Shown here piece by piece: positions 4,201-21,712 of a DNA stretch of 31,374 bases (positions are counted from its first letter, which is position 1; each line of letters begins with the position of its first letter). A program made the translations under genes and the position numbers. The notes beneath the pieces were generated by a model. The model worked only from the letters and a program-made list of their open reading frames with translations. It had not been told where the DNA came from and made no database searches. This DNA is from an uncultured cyanobacterium (GTDB lineage: Bacteria > Cyanobacteriota > Cyanobacteriia > CACIAM-69d): assembly GCA_937894105.1 (NCBI GenBank), contig CALCTI010000371.1:1-31374 (forward strand). The letters are read 5' to 3'.

Positions 4201-6516
4201 CTATTCCTCTTCGTCACTACCGGTTTCGTCATCAGAGCCCTCAGCTGCCTCCGTGTCGTCGGAGAGGGCTGCCAAGTCGATTTGCTGCCGGTAGTAGTCT
4301 ACGCCTCGCACTTCCACGTTGACTGGGTTGCCCAGGGCGTAGCGCCGTCGGTTCTTGCGCCCCACTAGGGTTTGCTGGCGTGATCGGTATTCGTACCAGT
4401 CGTCTTTTAAGGACGAAACATGCACCAGCCCCTCCACCTGTAGCTCTTCAATTTCCACAAAGAACCCGTAAGACTGGACGCCTACAATCAGCCCTGTAAA
4501 GCTTTCTTCAATGCGGGACTGCATGGTAGCCGTGCGCTGGAGACCGATAATATCTGACTCGGCGTCTTGCACCGCTCGCTCGCGATCGCCCAGGTTGGTC
4601 AAGGTGTTTGCCAAGCGGGCTTCTAAATCTTGATGCATATCCGGTGGCAACACGTTCCAGTCAATTTCCCCGTGGCAGGTGTGGTCGCGCAGGTTAACGG
4701 ATTTTTTGGAGCGGGTGGTGCGGCGATCGCGCCCGTTTTCAAACACCGCATTTAAAACGTGCTGCACCAAGAAGTCGGCATAGTGGCGGGTGGGCGCATT
4801 GCCCGTGGCATACATGGGCAGCGCTAGACCGAAGTGGGGACGGGGCGTCACGCTGTAGTAGCTAGGCTTTAGGGTCGGCAACAGCAGGGTATTGATAATT
4901 TTTCTGCCGCTAGGGGACTCTGCCAACTCGTCTAAACACGCCTGGTAAGCTTTGGGGATCACTTCCGCGTCGTCATCTAGGGTGTAAGTCAAACCCACGT
5001 TGCTAGCAAGCTTAATGGCATCCTGCACTTCGCTTAGGGGGGGCACCGTTTGGCAGCGATATAGGGCGGGCACTCCCAAAGCGTGGAGATGCTCAGCAAT
5101 GCCCTGATTCGCGGCGATCATCACCTCATTCACCAGCCCCTCCGACGGCTGCTCGTTACGGGGCAACACCGGCACGCCCGGTACGCCCTCCCGCTGTAAG
5201 GTGGATTCTGCCTCCGGTCCCCGCCGCAGCTCAAAGCCACCGCGATCACGTCGCTGCTGTCTTAACCCATTAGCCACCCCCTGAAACTGGGACAACAGCT
5301 CCTTAACTCCCTTGGCGTCGGACACATCGAGGGCATCGTCGGTGTCATTAACCAGATCGCTAATTTGCTGGCTGGTTAATGACACATCGGCGCGCACCAC
5401 ACTGGGCTGAATTTCAAAGCCAACCCGCTGCCCCGCCTCATCCAAGGTCACTAGCACCGAAACGCCTAACCGGTCCTGTCCTGGCACAAAGGATCCATGG
5501 CTAGCGCTAATGGCCGGTGGAAATAGGGGCAAGACCGCGTCGCTTAAATAGGCCGCCAAGCCCCGCCGCTGGGCCTCCCGATCCAAGGGCGATCCTAACG
5601 ACACATAGTGGGCAATATCCGCCATATGGCTGCCCAGGCGCGTTTGCCCGTTGCCGTTGGTTTCCACCGTAATGGCGTGGTCGTAAATGGGCACGGTGGC
5701 GTCTCCTTCACCATTGGCGATCGCCACGGTGGGCAGTGATCGCACATCCAGCCGTCCTTTCACCTCCGCCGCCTTTAAGGTCTTCTTCAGGGTGGGCAAC
5801 TTCTCTGCCGCCGCGATCGCCGCCGGCGAAAATCGCTCCAGCAGCCCGTACTTGCAGGTAACAATATCCACATCCCGCGCCGCCTGGGCATCCACCCCCA
5901 GCACCTTATTAATCTTCCCCTTCGGCAACATGCGACCCAGGGGATACCGGTCAATATCCACACTTTCGAGATACTCCACAATATCGTCCAGGCTCACCCC
6001 TTCAGCCTCCCTCAGCGCCACTTCAAACAACAGGCGATCGTCCAAAGGAGTGGCGCGAAAATCCCCGCCATCGGTCTTTTTTACCCGCGCCAGCACCGAC
6101 TGGTTAGACCGTTCCAGCACCAAACACACTTCCCCTTCCGGGCTACGGCGACGATTTCGCCCAGCCCCTTCCTTGATGACCTTTACTAGGACGCGATCGC
6201 CATTCCACGCATTGGACAAATGATTCTCGTGGATATACACATCCTCCGTATCATCATCGTCCTGGATAGCAAAACAAAAACCCTTACTCGAACAGCGCAA
6301 CTTTGCCTCAAACAACTCCTCTTGGGGTTTCGGCGCTAAACGATACCGTCCCCGCTCCTTTTCCACAATGCCAATGGTTTCTAGCGCTTTTAGAGCAATA
6401 CCCAAATGTTCTTTCTCGGTGCCTTCTTCCAAATTCAGCTTTTGCTCCAGAATTTTGGAAGTTAGGGACTTATCGCCCGTAAAGCTAGACAAAAGGGCAG
6501 CAATTGAAAAATCCAA
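4201..6516 (-). CDS. RNase II/RNase R family protein (RNB plus S1 domains; cyanobacterial Zam-like paralog), catalytic motif degenerate
   Basis: LRCSSKGFCFAI cold-shock domain, RNB region, C-terminal S1 (GVQSYGFFVEI...GLVHVSSLKDDWYEY); TTG start at 6516 (LDFSIAALL) preceded by GGAGG. Confidence 0.88.
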   Translation of the reverse strand: MDFSIAALLSSFTGDKSLTSKILEQKLNLEEGTEKEHLGIALKALETIGIVEKERGRYRLAPKPQEELFEAKLRCSSKGFCFAIQDDDDTEDVYIHENHLSNAWNGDRVLVKVIKEGAGRNRRRSPEGEVCLVLERSNQSVLARVKKTDGGDFRATPLDDRLLFEVALREAEGVSLDDIVEYLESVDIDRYPLGRMLPKGKINKVLGVDAQAARDVDIVTCKYGLLERFSPAAIAAAEKLPTLKKTLKAAEVKGRLDVRSLPTVAIANGEGDATVPIYDHAITVETNGNGQTRLGSHMADIAHYVSLGSPLDREAQRRGLAAYLSDAVLPLFPPAISASHGSFVPGQDRLGVSVLVTLDEAGQRVGFEIQPSVVRADVSLTSQQISDLVNDTDDALDVSDAKGVKELLSQFQGVANGLRQQRRDRGGFELRRGPEAESTLQREGVPGVPVLPRNEQPSEGLVNEVMIAANQGIAEHLHALGVPALYRCQTVPPLSEVQDAIKLASNVGLTYTLDDDAEVIPKAYQACLDELAESPSGRKIINTLLLPTLKPSYYSVTPRPHFGLALPMYATGNAPTRHYADFLVQHVLNAVFENGRDRRTTRSKKSVNLRDHTCHGEIDWNVLPPDMHQDLEARLANTLTNLGDRERAVQDAESDIIGLQRTATMQSRIEESFTGLIVGVQSYGFFVEIEELQVEGLVHVSSLKDDWYEYRSRQQTLVGRKNRRRYALGNPVNVEVRGVDYYRQQIDLAALSDDTEAAEGSDDETGSDEEE

Positions 6517-11469: not shown

Positions 11470-13194
11470 TTAGGTGTCGTCAGACCAACTGCTGCGCCAC
11501 TGTAAATCTGCCTGGGCAATGTTGAGCTTTTTCTGAGTATCTTGATGCTGCTGATTTAGGGTTTCAAGCTGACTAAAGAGCTTGCGGATTTTGAGCGATC
11601 GCCGTCGCAAATCAGGATTCACCAGCTCCAGGTCGCCTAAATTCAAATGCACTGCCACCATACGCATCGGCGCAGGTCGTCCGCCGAAGGCAGGAGCTTT
11701 GGTGGGTTCAATGGTTAGGGATAACAAGTTTGGGGTTTTTGAAGAGGACTCGCGACTCAGGGATAGGTCGCCGTCAATAAACGGGTTGGCGAGGGGTTCG
11801 GGGATAGCCTTGCTGGTCCTTAAAAGCTGGTTAGTGCGATAGGAGAATTTTTGCAGCTTCGATAAAACCAGACGCTCTCGCGATCGCTGCCACTGAATAA
11901 CATCCTGTGGACTGTCGCTTTTCGTAATGTCTATCGGCGCTGTCGAATTATCTGACAACGACGAAGTGGAGCCCGCTAATCCTAAAGTGCTTAAGCCTCC
12001 GGCAGTGTCTAATTTAGACTGAATCACCAAAGGTTGAGTCTCACCTTCTATGGAAGGGGTTTCACGCCCATCGGTGCCATTTTTGATGCCATTTTCACCC
12101 TCTCCAGCGCTTCTTCCTGCGCCGTTTGCGAAATACTCTCCTAAAAAGCTGCTGCTAGTGTCGCTGCCGGAGGAGGAATTTTCAAGTTGCTGATTATCAT
12201 CTTGCTGATTATTATCGCGATCGCGCCCCAGATCCCCATCATCAGCCCTCTCCCCATTCACCGGGTCAGCTTCCGCTAAATCCTTTAAATCTTCACCTGC
12301 ATCCTCGGAATTAGCTGCCGTTTCTTCGCGATCATCCCCATCGCCTTCTGAGGGCAAACCACCCAACGAAACGGTTGCATCATTCACCGTTTTACGATCT
12401 GCTGAATCAGTAATTTCTTCTAATTGATCCGCGTCATTCTCAACATTTTCATCCGCGATTTTTTCAATATTTTCAACAGCTTCATCTTCCCCTTGCCCTG
12501 TTTCCAGCTCCTTAATATCCCTATCATTTAAGTCGTCGTCATCACTGTCATCTTCATCTTCAGCCATCACTGACTCAAGGGCGTTAGCTAACGCCTCAGC
12601 CAGCCGATCAGGAGACAACCCCGTTTCAGACAATTCTTCCGAGGAAATCTCGTTGCTTAAAACCACTAAGGTTCTATTATTTTCCCCTAGGTCGTCATCA
12701 CTATCAAAGCCGCTATTGTCCAGGTCGGAGCCTTTTCCAGACTTACCTTTCCTATTTCTACGACGCTTCCGAGAAATTCTAGCATTTGAAAACAGGCTGC
12801 TAATTATAAACTCTTGGAAAGTATCAGGATCCCTCGGTTGCTTATCTAAAACTGAGTCTAAAACATCAACAATATTTTGTTGCAGCTTCAGCCCTAATGC
12901 TTTTACTTTGGTTTGCAGCGTTTGCTTTTGCTCGACCGTCAGCGTTAGAAATGCTTCAGGGTACTGGGTCGTGCACACTTGATAGCAAGCCAAGATCAAC
13001 TGCTGCCGGGCTGTCTTTCCCAATAGGGCTAAATAATCACGATCAGCACTGTGCAGCTTCTGAGCGATCGCCTGGGTTTCAACTGATAGCCCTCGCAACT
13101 TATTTTTCAAACCTAGAATGGAGTCAGCCATAGAAGAATTATTGTTGAATTGCCCCAGTTTTTCTTCCCGATTTTGTAATTTTAGTTTTGCCAA
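11470..13194 (-). CDS. Hypothetical protein: helical N- and C-terminal regions flanking a long acidic low-complexity insert
   Basis: 574-aa ORF directly downstream of tsf; RQQLILACYQVCTTQYPEAFL and QADLQWRSSWSDD resemble a recalled cyanobacterial family; start uncertain. Confidence 0.75.
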   Translation of the reverse strand: MAKLKLQNREEKLGQFNNNSSMADSILGLKNKLRGLSVETQAIAQKLHSADRDYLALLGKTARQQLILACYQVCTTQYPEAFLTLTVEQKQTLQTKVKALGLKLQQNIVDVLDSVLDKQPRDPDTFQEFIISSLFSNARISRKRRRNRKGKSGKGSDLDNSGFDSDDDLGENNRTLVVLSNEISSEELSETGLSPDRLAEALANALESVMAEDEDDSDDDDLNDRDIKELETGQGEDEAVENIEKIADENVENDADQLEEITDSADRKTVNDATVSLGGLPSEGDGDDREETAANSEDAGEDLKDLAEADPVNGERADDGDLGRDRDNNQQDDNQQLENSSSGSDTSSSFLGEYFANGAGRSAGEGENGIKNGTDGRETPSIEGETQPLVIQSKLDTAGGLSTLGLAGSTSSLSDNSTAPIDITKSDSPQDVIQWQRSRERLVLSKLQKFSYRTNQLLRTSKAIPEPLANPFIDGDLSLSRESSSKTPNLLSLTIEPTKAPAFGGRPAPMRMVAVHLNLGDLELVNPDLRRRSLKIRKLFSQLETLNQQHQDTQKKLNIAQADLQWRSSWSDDT

Positions 13195-13241: not shown

Positions 13242-13880
13242 TTATGGGGAAGGATAGGTTATCAGCTCGTTCCCAAGCTCTTCGCCCAAAATAAACCGAC
13301 TAAAACGGCGAACCCGAATCTCTTCACCAAACCGAGCAATCGCCTTTTGCACCAGCTCTTCTACGTTAATACTTTGATCGCGAATATAGGGTTGGGTCAG
13401 CAAACACATATCTTCCAGTCGCTTTTGCACCCGCTCTCCAGCAATTTTTGCTTTGGAATCCTTTGGCTTCCCCGCCAAATCATCTCGCCCCAGTTCCAAC
13501 GTTTGCTCTTTTAAAATCAACGCCTTGGGAATATCAGCGATTTTGATATATTGCACCTGGGAACAAGCGGCAATTTGCATAGCGATATTGTGGGCCAGGT
13601 CTTGAAAATCAGAGTGCTTTGCCACTGTGTCCGTTTGGCAATTTAGCTCCACCAATACACCGATGCGGTTGCCGGTATGGAGATAGCTAGCGATCGCCCC
13701 TTCCGCCGCCGTTTGCCCCACCGTCGGAGATTCCGCCGCAATCCCTCGCTGACGCAACCACTCCAGCGCCTTAACCAAATCACCATTGGTCGACACTAAA
13801 GCACGCTTGCAATCCATAATTCCCGCGCCAGTTTGAGCCCGATGGATCTTGACCTGGTTCGCCGTAACGATTTCCGCCAT
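13242..13880 (-). CDS. tsf: Elongation factor Ts, short cyanobacterial type, unusually divergent
   Basis: TGAGxMDCKRAL, AAEG, RIGVLVELNCQTD, AMQIAAC, IRVRRFSRFILGE; downstream of rpsB; ATG at 13880 (MAEI). Confidence 0.92.
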   Translation of the reverse strand: MAEIVTANQVKIHRAQTGAGIMDCKRALVSTNGDLVKALEWLRQRGIAAESPTVGQTAAEGAIASYLHTGNRIGVLVELNCQTDTVAKHSDFQDLAHNIAMQIAACSQVQYIKIADIPKALILKEQTLELGRDDLAGKPKDSKAKIAGERVQKRLEDMCLLTQPYIRDQSINVEELVQKAIARFGEEIRVRRFSRFILGEELGNELITYPSP

Positions 13881-13949
13881 GGTGGATTCATAAAGGTCCA
13901 ACCCTAATCCTATGGGGAATCGCGGGAAATATCACCCCAGCCGCATCAT

Positions 13950-14053: not shown

Positions 14054-14857
14054 TTAACCGTCGCTAGCCTCAGTGGTTTCCGGTGCAGCCTCTTCGGGGG
14101 CCGCCTCTTCGTCCTCGTAAACCTCATCCTCAAAGGACTCAGCATCATACTGATCGTAATCATCGGTGCTCAGTTCACCGTGACGCCCTTCGTAAATGGC
14201 ATCCGCAAGGCGGCCGATAATTAGCTTGATGGAACGAATTGCGTCATCGTTGGACGGAATGGGCACATCCACCACGTCAGGATCGCAGTTGGTGTCCAAC
14301 AGGGACACGATGGGCACACCCAGCTTGATGCACTCTTGAACTGCGTTGTACTCACGACGCTGGTCAATGATTACAACAATGTCCGGCTGGCGGCGCATAT
14401 TTTTAATGCCGTCCAGGTACTTCTTCAGCTTTGCCAGCTCCCGGCGCAACACGGAGGCTTCTTTCTTGGGTAGCAGATCCAAAGCTCCGGTGGCTTCCCG
14501 GCGCTCTAGTTCCTTCAAGCGCTCAACTCGCCCCTTAATGGTGGACCAGTTGGTTAGCATGCCTCCCAACCAGCGCTGGTTAACGTAGTAGCCACCACAG
14601 CGGGCTGCTTCCTGGGCAATGATGCCAGCAGCTTGGCGCTTGGTGCCCACAAATAGGACGTTTTTACCTTGCTCAGAGGCGTTGCGTAGGTACTGGTACG
14701 CGGATTCCATGCACTGGGCAGTTTGCACCAGGTCGATGATGTGGACGCCATTGCGAGCGGTAAAGATGAATGGATCCATTTTTGGATTCCAACGACTGGC
14801 CTGGTGGCCAAAGTGAACTCCTGCTTCTAGGAGTTCTGCCAAAGAAACGACTGCCAT
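14054..14857 (-). CDS. rpsB: 30S ribosomal protein S2
   Basis: [39 protein letters not shown]; AAGGAG SD upstream. Confidence 0.99.
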
Positions 14858-14980
14858 TATTTTTCTCCTTTCGGGTTTTAGCCTCCACCCAGGTTGTTTT
14901 GTAACGCTGGCGGTGCGCTGATTTTGACGTTGAATGCCAAATCTGCCGCCAACGCATAAACCCGAAACCTTGGGTGTGCG
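14858..14980 (-). promoter_or_regulatory. rpsB 5' leader RNA (t44/S2 autoregulatory leader-like)
   Basis: Minus strand: CACCCAAGG pairs with CCTGGGTG, followed by GAGGC; TTTCGGGTTT pairs with AAACCCGAAA just before the SD, in crossed (pseudoknot) order as in known rpsB leaders. Confidence 0.75.
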
Positions 14981-15198
14981 ATGTTTTAATTTGCCGAGCT
15001 AGCTTAACACGATTGGTGATGGGGTTGGCTTTTGCCTGTTAAGTCTGGAGCGGCGGGCGGTGGGTGTTTGTGTGAGAGGATAAGGGGGCGGAGCGATCGC
15101 CCAAAGATTGCTAAACAAACGCCTTCATAACAAATACCAACCGCCCAAAAATCGCCATTTTTCCACAAATCTTGTGAGGATTGACAAAGGATCACGCT

Positions 15199-15609
15199 AT
15201 GAAATTCATTGTTGGTTTGGTGGCCCTAGTGGGAATTGGCGGAGGCTTGACGCTAACGAATCCGTCGCCAGAAACCTATGCGGAAGAGGCAAGCCATAAG
15301 CTAGTGGAAAAGTTGCAGACAGAAACGTGTTCGGAGCTGTCTAATACGTTTGGGATTAATCTCCAGGAACAGTGTCGCAATGTGGTGGCGGATTTAAGAC
15401 CTCAGCTGAAAGGGCTGATCGAAACAAGCACTGAACGGACAAATTTGGGCGTGGTGAGCCATTACAAGACAAAGTTGACGGCGGATTCTTTGTTGCCAGA
15501 TTTCTTGTCGGGACAGTTGCCGAGCTACGAAGTGGAAAGCATTGGCGTCGCGACTCAGTTTATGTTTTACCGCGCAGAAGAGGTGCCAGCGCCGGAAGAG
15601 AACAGTTAA
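15199..15609 (+). CDS. DUF4359 family secreted or membrane-anchored protein
   Basis: Hydrophobic N-terminus, LTNPSPETYAEEA, STERTNLGVVSHYKT and YEVESIGVATQF motifs. Confidence 0.75.
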   Translation: MKFIVGLVALVGIGGGLTLTNPSPETYAEEASHKLVEKLQTETCSELSNTFGINLQEQCRNVVADLRPQLKGLIETSTERTNLGVVSHYKTKLTADSLLPDFLSGQLPSYEVESIGVATQFMFYRAEEVPAPEENS

Positions 15610-15623
15610 AAAAATACCCTCGT

Positions 15624-15629
15624 TAGAAT
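15624..15629 (+). promoter_or_regulatory. Putative -10 element (TAGAAT) upstream of the tRNA-like cassette
   Basis: TAGAAT a few nt before the first structured element; no clear -35. Confidence 0.45.
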
Positions 15630-15631
15630 AA

Positions 15632-15693
15632 TTGGCGTGCAGCACTTTTGTGGCTCGGGTTCCGTATGCCCGGTCGGTGCGCGGCGCTAACCA
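15632..15693 (+). ncRNA. Possible highly degenerate tRNA-like element ending in CCA, no T arm
   Basis: TTGGCGT pairs with GCGCTAA followed by CCA; internal hairpin CGGGT-TCCGTAT-GCCCG with a 7-nt loop; no TTCRA loop. Confidence 0.25.
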
Positions 15694-15723
15694 TTGCCCC
15701 TGCGTATTCCAAGTGTTCACATC

Positions 15724-15797
15724 TCTCGATTCGCCAAGCGGTAAGGCACTGGTGCAGAATCCAGCATTCACGGGTTCGATTCCCGTATCGAGGTCCA
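15724..15797 (+). tRNA. tRNA-like gene on a tRNA-Gln scaffold with an aberrant anticodon arm; anticodon not assignable
   Basis: Acceptor TCTCGAT/ATCGAGG, D arm GCC-AAGCGGTAA-GGC, T arm ACGGG-TTCGATT-CCCGT, CATTC variable loop, encoded CCA; anticodon arm CTGG-TGCAGAAT-CCAG is 1 nt short. Confidence 0.75.
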
Positions 15798-15871
15798 AAA
15801 GCTAGCCAAGCGGTAAGGCAACAGATTGTGGTTCTGTCCATTCGCAGGTTCGATTCCTGCGCTTTTAACCA
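15796..15871 (+). tRNA. tRNA-His(GTG)-like gene lacking the His identity elements
   Basis: D arm GCC-AAGCGGTAA-GGC, anticodon arm ACAGA-TTGTGGT-TCTGT, T arm GCAGG-TTCGATT-CCTGC, acceptor (C)AAAAGC/GCTTTT(A), A73, encoded CCA. Confidence 0.8.
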
Positions 15872-15961
15872 ACCTAAACCCTGAAAAGGTTTAACCCTCG
15901 TCTTTTAAACGAGACCCTGGTAAACGCTATGCGTTGCGGTTCAACTCCGCGTTTTTTGGGA
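15869..15961 (+). tRNA. Degenerate tRNA-Lys(TTT)-like element with a long variable region
   Basis: Anticodon arm CTCGT-CTTTTAA-ACGAG, T arm GCGG-TTCAACT-CCGC, hairpin AAACC/GGTTT at the D position; weak acceptor stem, no CCA. Confidence 0.55.
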
Positions 15962-16272
15962 CTGGAGCGATCGCCACTAGCCCACCATCGCCGAACTCAT
16001 AAGGAATAGCCACGTTGGACCTACGGGAAAAACAGGGCTAAACCTGAGGGGACGGCGACGGCAGGCAGCGGAAAAGTAACCCGCGCGGTTTGCTCGTCAA
16101 CATTCACGGGTCGGTCTCTTTCAGCTTTGGTTCTTTATGGCTGGCTACGGCTGGTTGTGGATAATTCAAGCGAAACAGCCGTGCTCCTGAACTTTGACCG
16201 CGATCGCCCGTTACGGATCCGCTTGTGGCGATCCTCCATCCCTTCAATATTTGTTTGTTTACTTCAGTCTCC

Positions 16273-19604: not shown

Positions 19605-20693
19605 TTGCGTACGCTTGAATTTTTTCACAGTAGATATAGATATAAATTTCACTTGGCCAATTTTAATTTGGAGTTGCCAACCCCCGAAAGTGCCGTGGCG
19701 TTGGCGGGCTATCGCGAAGAGAATTTAAAGCAATTAGCGCATTTAACGGGCACAACAGTGGTCCTGCGCGGACAGCAGGTGTGTGTTGCGGGGCAGGATA
19801 AGCAGGTGGCCCAGTGCGAGGCATTGGTGCGATCGCTAGAGCCCTATTGGTCCAAGGGGCAGCGAGTGGACGGTGCCGATATTTTGACCGCTCGCCATGC
19901 GCTAGATACCCAGCGCCAGGCAGAGTTACAGTCCATTCAAACTGACGCGATCGCCACCACCCGTCGCGGCGAAGTGGTCCGAGCCAAAACCTTTCGCCAG
20001 CGGCAATATATTCAAGCCCTGCGGAAACAGGATTTGATTTTTTGCATAGGCCCAGCCGGTACGGGAAAAACATTTTTGGCGGCGATATTAGCCTTGAAGG
20101 CCCTACTCGCCGGTGAATTTGAGCGGTTGATTTTGACGCGTCCGGCGGTGGAAGCGGGGGAGCGGCTGGGATTTTTACCCGGAGATTTACAACAAAAGGT
20201 AGATCCTTACCTGCGCCCCCTGTACGATGCACTGCACGAAATGGTGGACCCGGAAAAGGTTAATAGCTTGATGGAGCGGGGGGTGATCGAAATTGCGCCG
20301 TTGGCCTATATGCGTGGGCGCACCTTGAATCGATCCTTTGTAATTTTGGATGAAGCGCAAAATACAACGCCGGCCCAAATGAAAATGGTGTTGACTCGCC
20401 TGGGCTGGCAGTCGCGCATGGTGGTGACCGGGGATATTACCCAAACGGACTTGCCCACCTATCAACAGTCGGGCATGGCGATCGCCCAGAAAATCCTAAG
20501 CGGCACCGACGGCATTGCCTTTTGCCAACTAACGAAAGCCGACGTGGTGCGCCATCCCCTGGTGCAAAAAATCGTGGCGGCTTACGAAAAATATGACGAA
20601 AAACGCCCCCCAGAGAAATCCAACAAAATTCCGGGCAAAACTCCGGGCAAAACCCAGAGAAACAACGGTCGCCCACCCTATGGCGGCAGATAG
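19605..20693 (+). CDS. phoH: PhoH family ATPase (PhoH-like/YbeZ); start uncertain
   Basis: Walker A GPAGTGKT, RPAVEAGERLGFLPGDL, YMRGRTL, ILDEAQN, VVRHPLVQKIV. Confidence 0.95.
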   Translation: MRTLEFFHSRYRYKFHLANFNLELPTPESAVALAGYREENLKQLAHLTGTTVVLRGQQVCVAGQDKQVAQCEALVRSLEPYWSKGQRVDGADILTARHALDTQRQAELQSIQTDAIATTRRGEVVRAKTFRQRQYIQALRKQDLIFCIGPAGTGKTFLAAILALKALLAGEFERLILTRPAVEAGERLGFLPGDLQQKVDPYLRPLYDALHEMVDPEKVNSLMERGVIEIAPLAYMRGRTLNRSFVILDEAQNTTPAQMKMVLTRLGWQSRMVVTGDITQTDLPTYQQSGMAIAQKILSGTDGIAFCQLTKADVVRHPLVQKIVAAYEKYDEKRPPEKSNKIPGKTPGKTQRNNGRPPYGGR

Positions 20694-20769
20694 GCAACAC
20701 ACAGGAGGCAGAGAGCGAAATTTGCCACGTCTGTGGGCAACGCGCCTAAAGTGCCTCCTAAAGACCCCT

Positions 20770-21303
20770 CTAAATTTCGTGGAAGTCGTAAAGCACAACG
20801 CCGCTGTTGGGATCGTTACCGATGCTCACGTAGCCAGACTTCAGCATTTGGGACAGAACCGCTTCCACCTTGTCAAAATCCAATCCCGTAGCCATCACCC
20901 CCTGGGTCACTGACAGCTTGCCGCCGTATTGACTCGCCGCCTGGACCAACTGCTTCATAATTTCCCCCTCCGTCAGCTCCGCTTTGGGCATGGCCGCCAC
21001 AGCCTGGGTTGTGCCGACGCCGGGATAATAACCGCTGAGGAGGGCACGACGTTTTAAATTGTGCTCGTCCACCATTTCCGGGATTAGAAACAGGTCAATG
21101 AATTGCCCGAAGCCAAACCAGCCCCAGGTGATGAGCCATAGGAAGCCGGTGCCCACTTTCCCGTTGTAAAACCGGTGGACCCCGGAAACGCCGAATAGAC
21201 AAACTAGCCACAACAAATAGCTGGTGGCAACACTGGTTTGCCCAGACCTTGGCTGAGAATTTTGCGGAGCGATCGCCCGTCCATTCTTCTTTCCCAAACT
21301 CAT
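20770..21303 (-). CDS. TM2 (NINE) domain membrane protein with a C-terminal winged-helix-like domain
   Basis: SYLLWLVCLFGVSGVHRFYNGK...GQFIDLFLIP; C-terminal GGKLSVTQGVMATG; ATG 21303 or 21315 more plausible than 21495. Confidence 0.85.
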   Translation of the reverse strand: MSLGKKNGRAIAPQNSQPRSGQTSVATSYLLWLVCLFGVSGVHRFYNGKVGTGFLWLITWGWFGFGQFIDLFLIPEMVDEHNLKRRALLSGYYPGVGTTQAVAAMPKAELTEGEIMKQLVQAASQYGGKLSVTQGVMATGLDFDKVEAVLSQMLKSGYVSIGNDPNSGVVLYDFHEI

Positions 21304-21712
21304 ACTTCCCACCATTTTCAGCCCACCATTGTTACTCGCGATACCAGCAGCCTTAACAAATCCACTTGTTTTAACTTTAGCGCGATCGCCCCTAAACCCT
21401 GATCCCCCCCAACCACCTTCAAAATAGTCCCCGAACCGACCGCCCCCGGTAATTTCGCCCCCTATAGACTTACTCCTTTTTAAAGGTTTATGCATGGCAA
21501 AGTTCTAGAAAATCGCAAGGAATATTACTGGAAAGAAAAAGTTTTAGTAACACTTAACGTCAAATCCACACCGCCTCAAAAAGGTCTTGGTAGACTATGG
21601 CCTAATGAGGAAAAGCTAGCTGGTTTGCCGTGACGGCTTCGCCAGCAAAGTAGGGTGAGAAACGCCCGGAAATAATACAGAGACTAGAGTCTAAATAGAG
21701 TTGTAAATATTC

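Follow-up and report, generated by a model that had tools for sequence, protein, structure and literature searches.

The stretch of DNA analysed here (the window) comprises 31,374 nucleotides (nt) of contig CALCTI010000371.1 from an uncultured cyanobacterium of the lineage CACIAM-69d (assembly GCA_937894105.1), and the genome it belongs to (G000) is a draft assembly of 730 contigs that is 93% complete. The neighbourhood considered is chromosomal and of housekeeping character, leading, according to Pfam, from rpsB-tsf over a DUF4359 gene, a cassette of tRNA-like units and an SPFH/Band-7 gene to rpsP and phoH. Positions 15624-15961, described in a first-pass annotation of the sequence as a compact cassette, are not a free-standing unit but the 5' two-thirds of one longer non-coding RNA gene of ~0.64 kilobases (kb; about 15631-16240) that includes a 3' domain and is strictly coupled to the SPFH gene. 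The SPFH/Band-7-associated tRNA-like RNA class takes the form of this RNA gene in cyanobacteria. It consists, in this order, of a two-hairpin 5' motif, two end-to-end tRNA-shaped modules (units 1 and 2, each with CCA), a remodelled T-arm module (unit 3) and the 3' domain (Table 1), with the tRNA-like units ending 312 nt upstream of the SPFH gene.

Table 1. Position, strand and supporting evidence for the RNA gene and its partner gene in the window.
Feature	Position	Strand	Evidence
-10 box TAGAAT of the RNA gene	15624..15629	+	sequence; alignment of tandem copies
5' two-hairpin motif	15646..15715	+	covariance model R1
tRNA-like unit 1	15724..15797	+	ARAGORN; Rfam tRNA, 40.7 bits
tRNA-like unit 2	15796..15871	+	ARAGORN; Rfam tRNA, 52.9 bits
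Unit 3, remodelled tRNA-like module	15872..15961	+	ARAGORN -ps80; terminator scan
3' domain of the RNA gene	15976..16240 (approximate boundaries)	+	alignment with 12 other loci
Partner SPFH/Band-7 gene, 516 amino acids	16273..17823	+	Pfam Band_7

A pairing of this kind was predicted in 2016, from genomic evidence only and in the context of RNA-repair and translation-stress systems, by Burroughs and Aravind, who placed RtcB in some bacteria beside a Band-7 protein and a 'band 7-associated tRNA' strongly resembling tRNA; according to Wang et al. 2018, this RNA is sometimes interchangeable with Ro60/YrlA and was experimentally unvalidated as of that year (bioRxiv 10.1101/312249). We found no later experimental test of the pairing in the literature. 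The gene described here shares with the class a tRNA-like RNA gene adjoining a Band-7/SPFH gene, the conservation of this pair across genomes and, through the rtcB regulon of Nostoc, a link to RNA repair and translation stress. It differs from the class in being a composite of ~0.64 kb instead of a single tRNA look-alike, in that RtcB is not adjacent and was not found in the genus at all, and in that sister genomes hold tandem RNA genes with different tRNA bodies. New compared to the published description are the composite architecture with its lineage-specific 5' motif and 3' domain and the universal 1:72 mismatch of unit 2, while new in the window's genus are the independence from RtcB and from the boxes of the repressor TrcR, the tandem amplification and the swapped tRNA bodies.

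The TAGAAT box and the three tRNA-derived units reported earlier were recovered by sequence, ARAGORN and Rfam. A consensus scanner detected no full sigma-70 promoter at the TAGAAT, downstream of which transcription presumably starts; each tandem copy in the sister genome G001 is preceded by its own (C/G)TTAGAAT box, as seen in the copy alignment. Between the box and unit 1, where a doubtful fourth unit had been suspected, there is no cloverleaf; the segment is a conserved element all the same, namely the covariance-supported two-hairpin motif. Its hairpin P1 (15652-15675) carries the loop UUCYGURUG, and in hairpin P2 (15677-15707) GUGCGC is paired with GCGUAU below a variable tip; compensatory changes were found in 7 of the 18 pairs. 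The covariance model of the motif (R1) scored 93 bits in the window and 28-47 bits in other families, its matches in the genomes and loci searched were located exclusively upstream of the SPFH gene, and a pattern scan also recovered the motif from two Microcoleus genomes. Neither the 5' motif nor the 3' domain matched an Rfam family, in the window and in Nostoc alike. The motif was also considered as a small open reading frame (ORF) and rejected as such, since in the alignment the frame is broken by a 2-nt indel and an early stop in copy G001A.

Unit 1, called 'Phe GAA' by ARAGORN, has an anticodon arm of 16 nt, in which Rfam aligns a 4-base-pair stem only (CUGG/CCAG) and leaves the 8 bases of the loop (UGCAGAAU) unaligned, and the earlier description of an arm 1 nt short together with U1.G72 and U73 was accurate. 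Position 1:72 is thus paired in this unit, the acceptor, D and T arms are retained, and a CCA is encoded that shares 2 nt with the start of unit 2. Pairing in the acceptor, D and T helices amounts to 92.4% across 14 copies, and compensatory changes affect 9 of 16 pairs. A decoding tRNA has a 5-base-pair anticodon stem, a 7-nt loop with U33 and a purine at 37, and a conserved anticodon; the arm in the window has 4 base pairs and 8 loop nucleotides instead, and its length and loop vary across lineages from short tetraloop-capped hairpins to long extensions; same-genus copies have 8-nt loops (UGCAGAAU, UGAAGGAU), a 7-nt AAG loop or a truncated unit. The same variation, with frequent tetraloop caps, led us to reject the 8-nt loop as a frameshift suppressor.

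Unit 2 is the most constant tRNA module of the RNA gene. In the window it has, as the first-pass annotation described, the anticodon GUG (His), a C1xA72 mismatch and A73, and it lacks G-1. The acceptor reads CAAAAGC/GCUUUUA, and a CCA is encoded. Its body is tRNA-Gln-like, with 83% identity to the genome's own tRNA-Gln. Across 17 copies its helices are 93.8% paired (25-50% when the partners are slid) and 11 of 21 pairs show compensatory changes, whereas 1:72 is unpaired in 17/17 copies even though both bases vary. The strong resemblance to tRNA is also evident from Rfam RF00005, with 55-68.5 bits in most relatives. The G-1:C73 pair is the determinant for HisRS, and the genome's real tRNA-His carries both of these bases, while unit 2 has C at -1, A at 73 and C.A at 1:72. 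The loop is canonical in the window, and the anticodon is not constant between orthologues (GUG, UUG, CUU, CAG, CAU, UAU, UUU and GUU), so that the Gln, His and Lys identities assigned earlier are incidental. Free anticodons combined with a conserved 1:72 mismatch suggest that the modules are kept for their tRNA shape and acceptor end and not for codon reading.

As an analogy of features only, the bacterial initiator tRNA likewise has an unpaired 1:72, and A73-CCA is present in most unit 2 copies. Unlike the initiator, unit 2 is without the three G:C pairs of the anticodon stem, its anticodon is not fixed as CAU, and its 2:71 and 3:70 pairs are mostly A:U. The 1:72 mismatch of initiator tRNA disfavours EF-Tu, and the mismatch of unit 2 may similarly keep it out of elongation.

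The units could also be spare decoding tRNAs, a miniature stress-induced trn array that is syntenic with the SPFH gene by chance. The scores of unit 2 in relatives (55-68 bits) are within the range of real tRNAs, most of its anticodon loops are canonical, and tightly packed tRNA-type genes with an encoded CCA are likewise a feature of the trn L-arrays of Anabaena and Nostoc. Nevertheless, we consider this reading very improbable in view of the constant mismatch and unconserved anticodon of unit 2, the 8-nt loop of unit 1 in the window, and a Gln-type body that bears GUG without G-1:C73. Further, cognate tRNA-His, Gln, Phe and Lys of the ordinary type, all without an encoded CCA, are already present elsewhere in the genome, and chance synteny does not explain why the units are so strictly coupled with the 5' motif, 3' domain and SPFH gene. 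L-arrays hold up to 43 tRNA genes, with 26 in Anabaena on a megaplasmid, and are reported to aid survival under translational stress (PMC8421152, PMC10272220). The locus described here, in contrast, has one to three mimic units at a chromosomal SPFH site together with non-tRNA domains; instead of many tRNA genes behind a TrcR-box promoter there are two or three units in synteny with the SPFH gene.

Unit 3 was detected by ARAGORN at a relaxed threshold (-ps80) only, as Lys UUU with a long variable arm. The long arm reported earlier is real, while the Lys identity is incidental and the unit is a remodelled module. It is made up of hairpin A (15876-15892), the anticodon-arm-like hairpin B (15897-15913, loop CUUUUAA), the sequence UGGUAAA (15918-15924), a short hairpin (15923-15935), a T arm (15935-15951) and six U residues (15952-15957); the T arm with the U6 tract is also recognised as an intrinsic terminator. 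Across lineages, pairing was counted for the T arm and the adjoining hairpin, where it reaches 99% in 15 copies; the T-loop sequence UUCRANU does not vary. The stem of hairpin B covaries (CUCGU/ACGAG against CUUGC/GCAAG), and its loop takes five different forms among the same-genus copies.

The 3' domain was delimited by aligning the sequence from unit 2 to the SPFH start at 13 loci (the window and 12 others, 11 of these loci being from outside the window's genus). Conserved blocks across the loci are GCAGCAG..AAGG.GCUUGCGCGAUCG, GCUUGAGUnUGUCC, GAACGACAnAUUUG, CUUAAUCCAG and GAUCGCCCGC..CUGUGAAC..UUGCGGGG, the last of these with a U-tract after it. In the window, as in its genus, the domain is reduced and diverged: the alignment contains no CUUAAUCCAG block there, and the blocks found are GCAGGCAGCGGAAAAG..CGCGCGG (about 16062-16088), GCUUUGGUUC (16124-16133; GCUUGAGUnUGUCC in other loci), CAAGCGAAACAGCCG (16168-16182) and CUGAACUUUGACC (about 16188-16200), followed by the closing stem GAUCGCC/GGCGAUC (16202-16208 with 16227-16233).

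Three further genomes of the same genus (G001-G003) carry the cassette at the same site, 3' of the DUF4359 gene. Their tandem copies number one to three and have diverged to 73-92% identity, the window having a single copy. Constant in these copies are the acceptors UCUCGAU/AUCGAGR of unit 1 and CAAAAGY/RCUUUUA of unit 2, the T arms and the upstream element of ~70 nt, and variable are the tRNA bodies and anticodon loops. The anticodon of unit 2 is GUG in the window and, one base apart, UUG in G001A, and in other copies the body is a type-II Leu(CAG) or a Lys(CUU) one. The tandem repeats of G001, G002 and G003 include the 3' domain, ~280 nt following the cassette, and the repeated entity is therefore a gene of ~650-715 nt with its own TAGAAT box; G001 has three complete RNA genes in tandem.

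Some further details were observed among the tandem loci. In G003, which is 72% complete, contigs C19 and C44 (loci L034 and L035) contain two different DUF4359-cassette junctions, which suggests a strain mixture, and in copy G003aA unit 3 is disrupted. In Microcoleus sp. CAWBG506 (L039), the SPFH gene is preceded by a tandem of two complete RNA genes (minus strand, 6241-6306 and 4463-4528), of which the upstream one has units 1 and 2 and the downstream one a degenerate unit 2 alone, with the non-canonical loop UGUAUCG. Amplification is therefore not confined to the window's genus.

Another possibility, raised in the first-pass annotation, is that the units are ribotoxin decoys, bait that would soak up or report anticodon nucleases and other tRNA-targeting toxins; swapped bodies and loops would then track the toxins met. 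In its favour, tandem copies and close strains carry different anticodon loops and whole tRNA bodies on unchanged acceptor stems, and the Nostoc partner gene shares its regulation with RtcB. On the other hand, no excess of loop changes was found between the closest pair, G000 and G001A, where unit 1 differs at 2/8 loop positions and at 3/66 positions elsewhere, numbers too small to tell. Moreover, the arm of unit 1 is often not anticodon-like, the window is single-copy, the locus has no linked gene for a nuclease or toxin, and decoys would not account for the 5' motif, the 3' domain or the SPFH coupling. We consider this reading decidedly unlikely.

The coupling to the SPFH gene was surveyed in 151 cyanobacterial genomes of one class, which are related to each other, so that the following counts do not constitute a formal test. 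A full-length SPFH orthologue (~510 amino acids) is present in 13/151 genomes, and the R1 model located the 5' motif in 11/151 genomes from at least five families. All 13 SPFH genomes have the motif 0.6-0.9 kb upstream of the gene, 11 by the genome search and two (at 660-930 nt) with filters off, and it was found in none of the 138 genomes without an SPFH orthologue. The same layout was seen in two Microcoleus genomes, Nostoc PCC 7120 and one metagenomic contig, with no exception. Downstream of each R1 match follow unit 1 (sometimes reduced or absent), unit 2, hairpins ending in a T arm, a conserved non-coding domain and the SPFH gene. Altogether, the arrangement recurs in at least six cyanobacterial families with covarying helices and is far beyond chance.

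This breadth bears directly on the main alternative of the first-pass annotation, a decaying tRNA-array remnant under no selection. Non-canonical identity positions and the low Rfam score of unit 1 would suit decay, but it is contradicted by an architecture shared by at least six families, by a conserved mismatch and by the compensatory changes seen in all helices tested, as well as by the presence of relatives' sequences in RNA libraries, and we regard decay as extremely improbable. The general direction of that annotation, non-decoding tRNA mimics under selection, has held up, given that elbow, acceptor and T helices covary and anticodons and identity positions do not.

The best 120 SPFH homologues are all cyanobacterial where names are given. 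A longer SPFH variant of 660 amino acids on a metagenomic contig, cyanobacterial by gene context, also carries the motif. In this lineage, whose SPFH protein has one extra repeat, the sole tRNA-like unit (L080, 4542-4614) scores just 21.5 bits, next to an intact 5' motif (38 bits) and equally intact blocks of the 3' domain and TrcR-type boxes, indicating that the non-tRNA parts can outlast the tRNA mimic in conservation.

In Nostoc PCC 7120, the RNA gene is situated directly upstream of alr0739 (OmdA/YdeI-like), which is followed by the SPFH gene alr0740. The order there is an extended -10 box, the R1 motif (47 bits), a reduced unit 1, unit 2, hairpins, the 3' domain and two tandem GTGTAGTAT boxes. 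Unit 2 of Nostoc (L078, 2906-2977; BA000019.2, about 860,747-860,818) scores 64.5 bits and has the anticodon GUU (Asn), C1xU72 and CCA, and it may be listed in annotations as an ordinary or pseudo tRNA-Asn. Boxes of the TGTAGTAT type are the site of the repressor TrcR, which binds the alr0739 promoter, and deletion of trcR raises alr0739 71-fold and alr0740 42-fold along with rtcB, rsgA, rimK and the trn tRNA array (PMC10272220). Additionally, alr0739-alr0740, rtcB and the L-array shift together in erythromycin-containing culture (PMC9938897), and the Alr0740 protein is 3.1-fold up under BMAA (PMC8147232). None of these three papers mentions the RNA, the locus does not appear in the trn-operon paper (PMC8421152), and alr0739, alr0738 and nearby coordinates are absent from the examined text and supplements of a small-RNA catalogue of heterocystous cyanobacteria (PMC4734099). 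The RNA-repair and translation-stress setting named in the first-pass annotation (YrlA-like mimics, slipin, Nostoc arrays) is well matched by this TrcR regulon with rtcB. Its link to the Nostoc arrays survives as shared regulation, the slipin operon beside the RNA gene and the trn array both being repressed by TrcR (PMC10272220), and fails as homology.

At 10 of the 11 aligned loci outside the genus, all except G020, the RNA gene is separated from the SPFH operon by paired TGTAGTAT/TGTATTAC boxes, and the RNA's own promoter is without a TrcR box. The RNA itself was traced in public data through G118, a relative for which 15 RNA runs from 11 studies contained 9-33% of the sampled words. Assembled contigs from RNA libraries and metatranscriptomes (four runs from four studies, at least 88% alike) were mapped on a G118-type locus, where they cover about 1510-2081, a range that begins within the 5' motif and extends as far as the 3' domain does. 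A single 542-nt contig (1520-2058) holds the 5' motif, tRNA-like units and 3' domain together. Coverage was absent from the preceding 90 nt and from the interval between this range and the SPFH gene, and the coding region had one low-depth contig. The sharp restriction of the contigs to the non-coding locus argues for a long RNA.

The same data bear on the question of whether the RNA acts in cis, as a 5' untranslated leader of the SPFH mRNA in which the modules would be processing sites for RNase P/Z or sensors of read-through. The RNA always lies directly upstream of the SPFH gene in the same orientation, a consensus scan of the window's genus detected no promoter in the interval that leads from the 3' domain to the start codon of SPFH, and the T arm of unit 3 doubles as a terminator that could gate read-through. 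These features are countered by the separate promoter with TrcR boxes that stands between RNA and operon at the 10 loci mentioned above, by the whole gene alr0739 intervening in Nostoc, and by RNA-library contigs that end before the SPFH gene. The three complete tandem RNA genes of G001, each with its TAGAAT box, also suit a trans-acting product better, and a leader appears rather unlikely to us.

The partner protein, a member of the slipin family, has its Pfam Band_7 match at residues 302-473 of 516 and is 52% identical to the Nostoc protein P0096, encoded on BA000019.2 as alr0740. Its AlphaFold model (pLDDT 83) is composed of four beta modules of ~70 residues, an SPFH core and a long C-terminal helix, and no hydrophobic segment was found in the protein (maximum 19-residue hydropathy 1.03). 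In Foldseek searches, stomatin, HflK/C and prohibitin match the C-terminal half, and the major vault protein (MVP) is the only full-length match (about 590 columns, E about 1e-13). According to the model, the Foldseek matches and the hydropathy, the partner is thus predicted to be soluble and of vault-like architecture, with beta-repeats, an SPFH shoulder and a cap helix and without a membrane anchor, which is a resemblance and not proof of a cage. With the eukaryotic vault it would share this order of parts, the solubility and the association with a small structured RNA. It differs from MVP in having only four repeats, 516 amino acids and 12-14% identity, and cage and RNA binding are putative. 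Vault RNAs, for their part, are not cloverleaf-like.

Anticodon drift, the variable arm of unit 1 and the 1:72 mismatch of unit 2 characterise the modules as tRNA mimics and not decoders. Taking the evidence together, we consider it probable that the RNA is a trans-acting partner of the SPFH protein in a translation-stress response. The RNA would not be used for decoding; with the oligomeric SPFH protein it might form a ribonucleoprotein resembling the Ro/Y-RNA or vault particles, in which the tRNA-shaped modules would present acceptor and T-elbow surfaces to tRNA-acting enzymes or toxins during translational stress or RNA damage. In the window's genus the module would work without RtcB and without TrcR boxes.

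Several observations weigh against a trans-acting, non-decoding partner of this kind. Units 1 and 2 score as tRNAs and keep their CCA, and the loop of unit 2 is mostly a canonical one of 7 nt, so charging is possible. The link between the RNA and the SPFH protein is genomic only, and the vault match is one of architecture only, with TM about 0.3, a low value being expected for an elongated chain. The evidence for the RNA comes from relatives' contigs that lack strand and end information, in libraries that can contain DNA, and the window genome's own sequence reached at most 0.05 of sampled words in public runs. Regarding regulation, TGTAGTAT-like matches in the window are not above chance and none lies at the locus. 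Finally, RtcB is present in 7 of the 13 module genomes and 62 of the 138 others.

RtcB (PF01139) was found neither in the window genome nor in G001-G003. With no match in the four genomes of the genus and the counts just given, a repair-ligase role is not general, and RtcB as an obligate partner was rejected on the same grounds (0/4 same-genus and 7/13 module genomes); the RtcB neighbourhood of the published class is accordingly lacking here. In genome G117, contig C256 holds RtcB (14364-15455), the RNA motif (19101) and the SPFH gene (19973-21490) on the same strand. There RtcB is ~3.6 kb upstream of the module; of the cyanobacteria examined, this genome comes nearest to the operon layout of 2016 and is the sole close case.

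The YrlA and Y RNAs that act with Ro60 (Rsr) share with the present system a tRNA-mimicking module, an adjoining gene for a scaffold protein and a tie to the rtcB stress response. The partner here is SPFH and not Ro60, however, and the 5'/3' Ro-binding stem was not identified. At E<=10, Rfam yielded no match other than tRNA in the window, Y-RNA and YrlA included. A gene with the TROVE (Ro60) domain is likewise lacking in the window genome and near the module in relatives, the TROVE matches of G001 and G028 lying elsewhere in those genomes. A Ro60/Y-RNA system as such is ruled out by the absence of both, and the earlier suggestion of YrlA itself falls with it, leaving a general likeness.

A more far-reaching idea joins the bait and particle themes. 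In it, a vault- or Ro-like ribonucleoprotein cage would display interchangeable tRNA bodies as bait, and the genus would amplify and swap Gln-, Leu- and Lys-type bodies to match the toxins and phage factors it meets, amounting to an RtcB-independent form of sensing or decoy immunity. We regard this as unlikely.

The cyanobacterial family brings the Band-7/tRNA-like RNA pairing of 2016 into the genetically tractable Nostoc PCC 7120, where alr0740 already has published regulation data (TrcR, erythromycin and BMAA). It defines a modular RNA of ~0.6 kb, and natural variants, such as tandem copies, swapped bodies and genomes without RtcB, can guide experiments. Should the RNA and the protein assemble into a particle, bacteria would have a counterpart of the Ro/Y-RNA or vault ribonucleoproteins.

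Two further features of the window were noted in the genes preceding the cassette. A 574-amino-acid ORF 3' of tsf (11470-13194, minus strand) has no Pfam family. The tsf (EF-Ts) ORF itself (13242-13901, minus strand) had been described as degenerate, and in agreement with this it encodes just 219 amino acids and its Pfam EF_TS match covers the second half of the model alone (profile positions 78-204 of 204).

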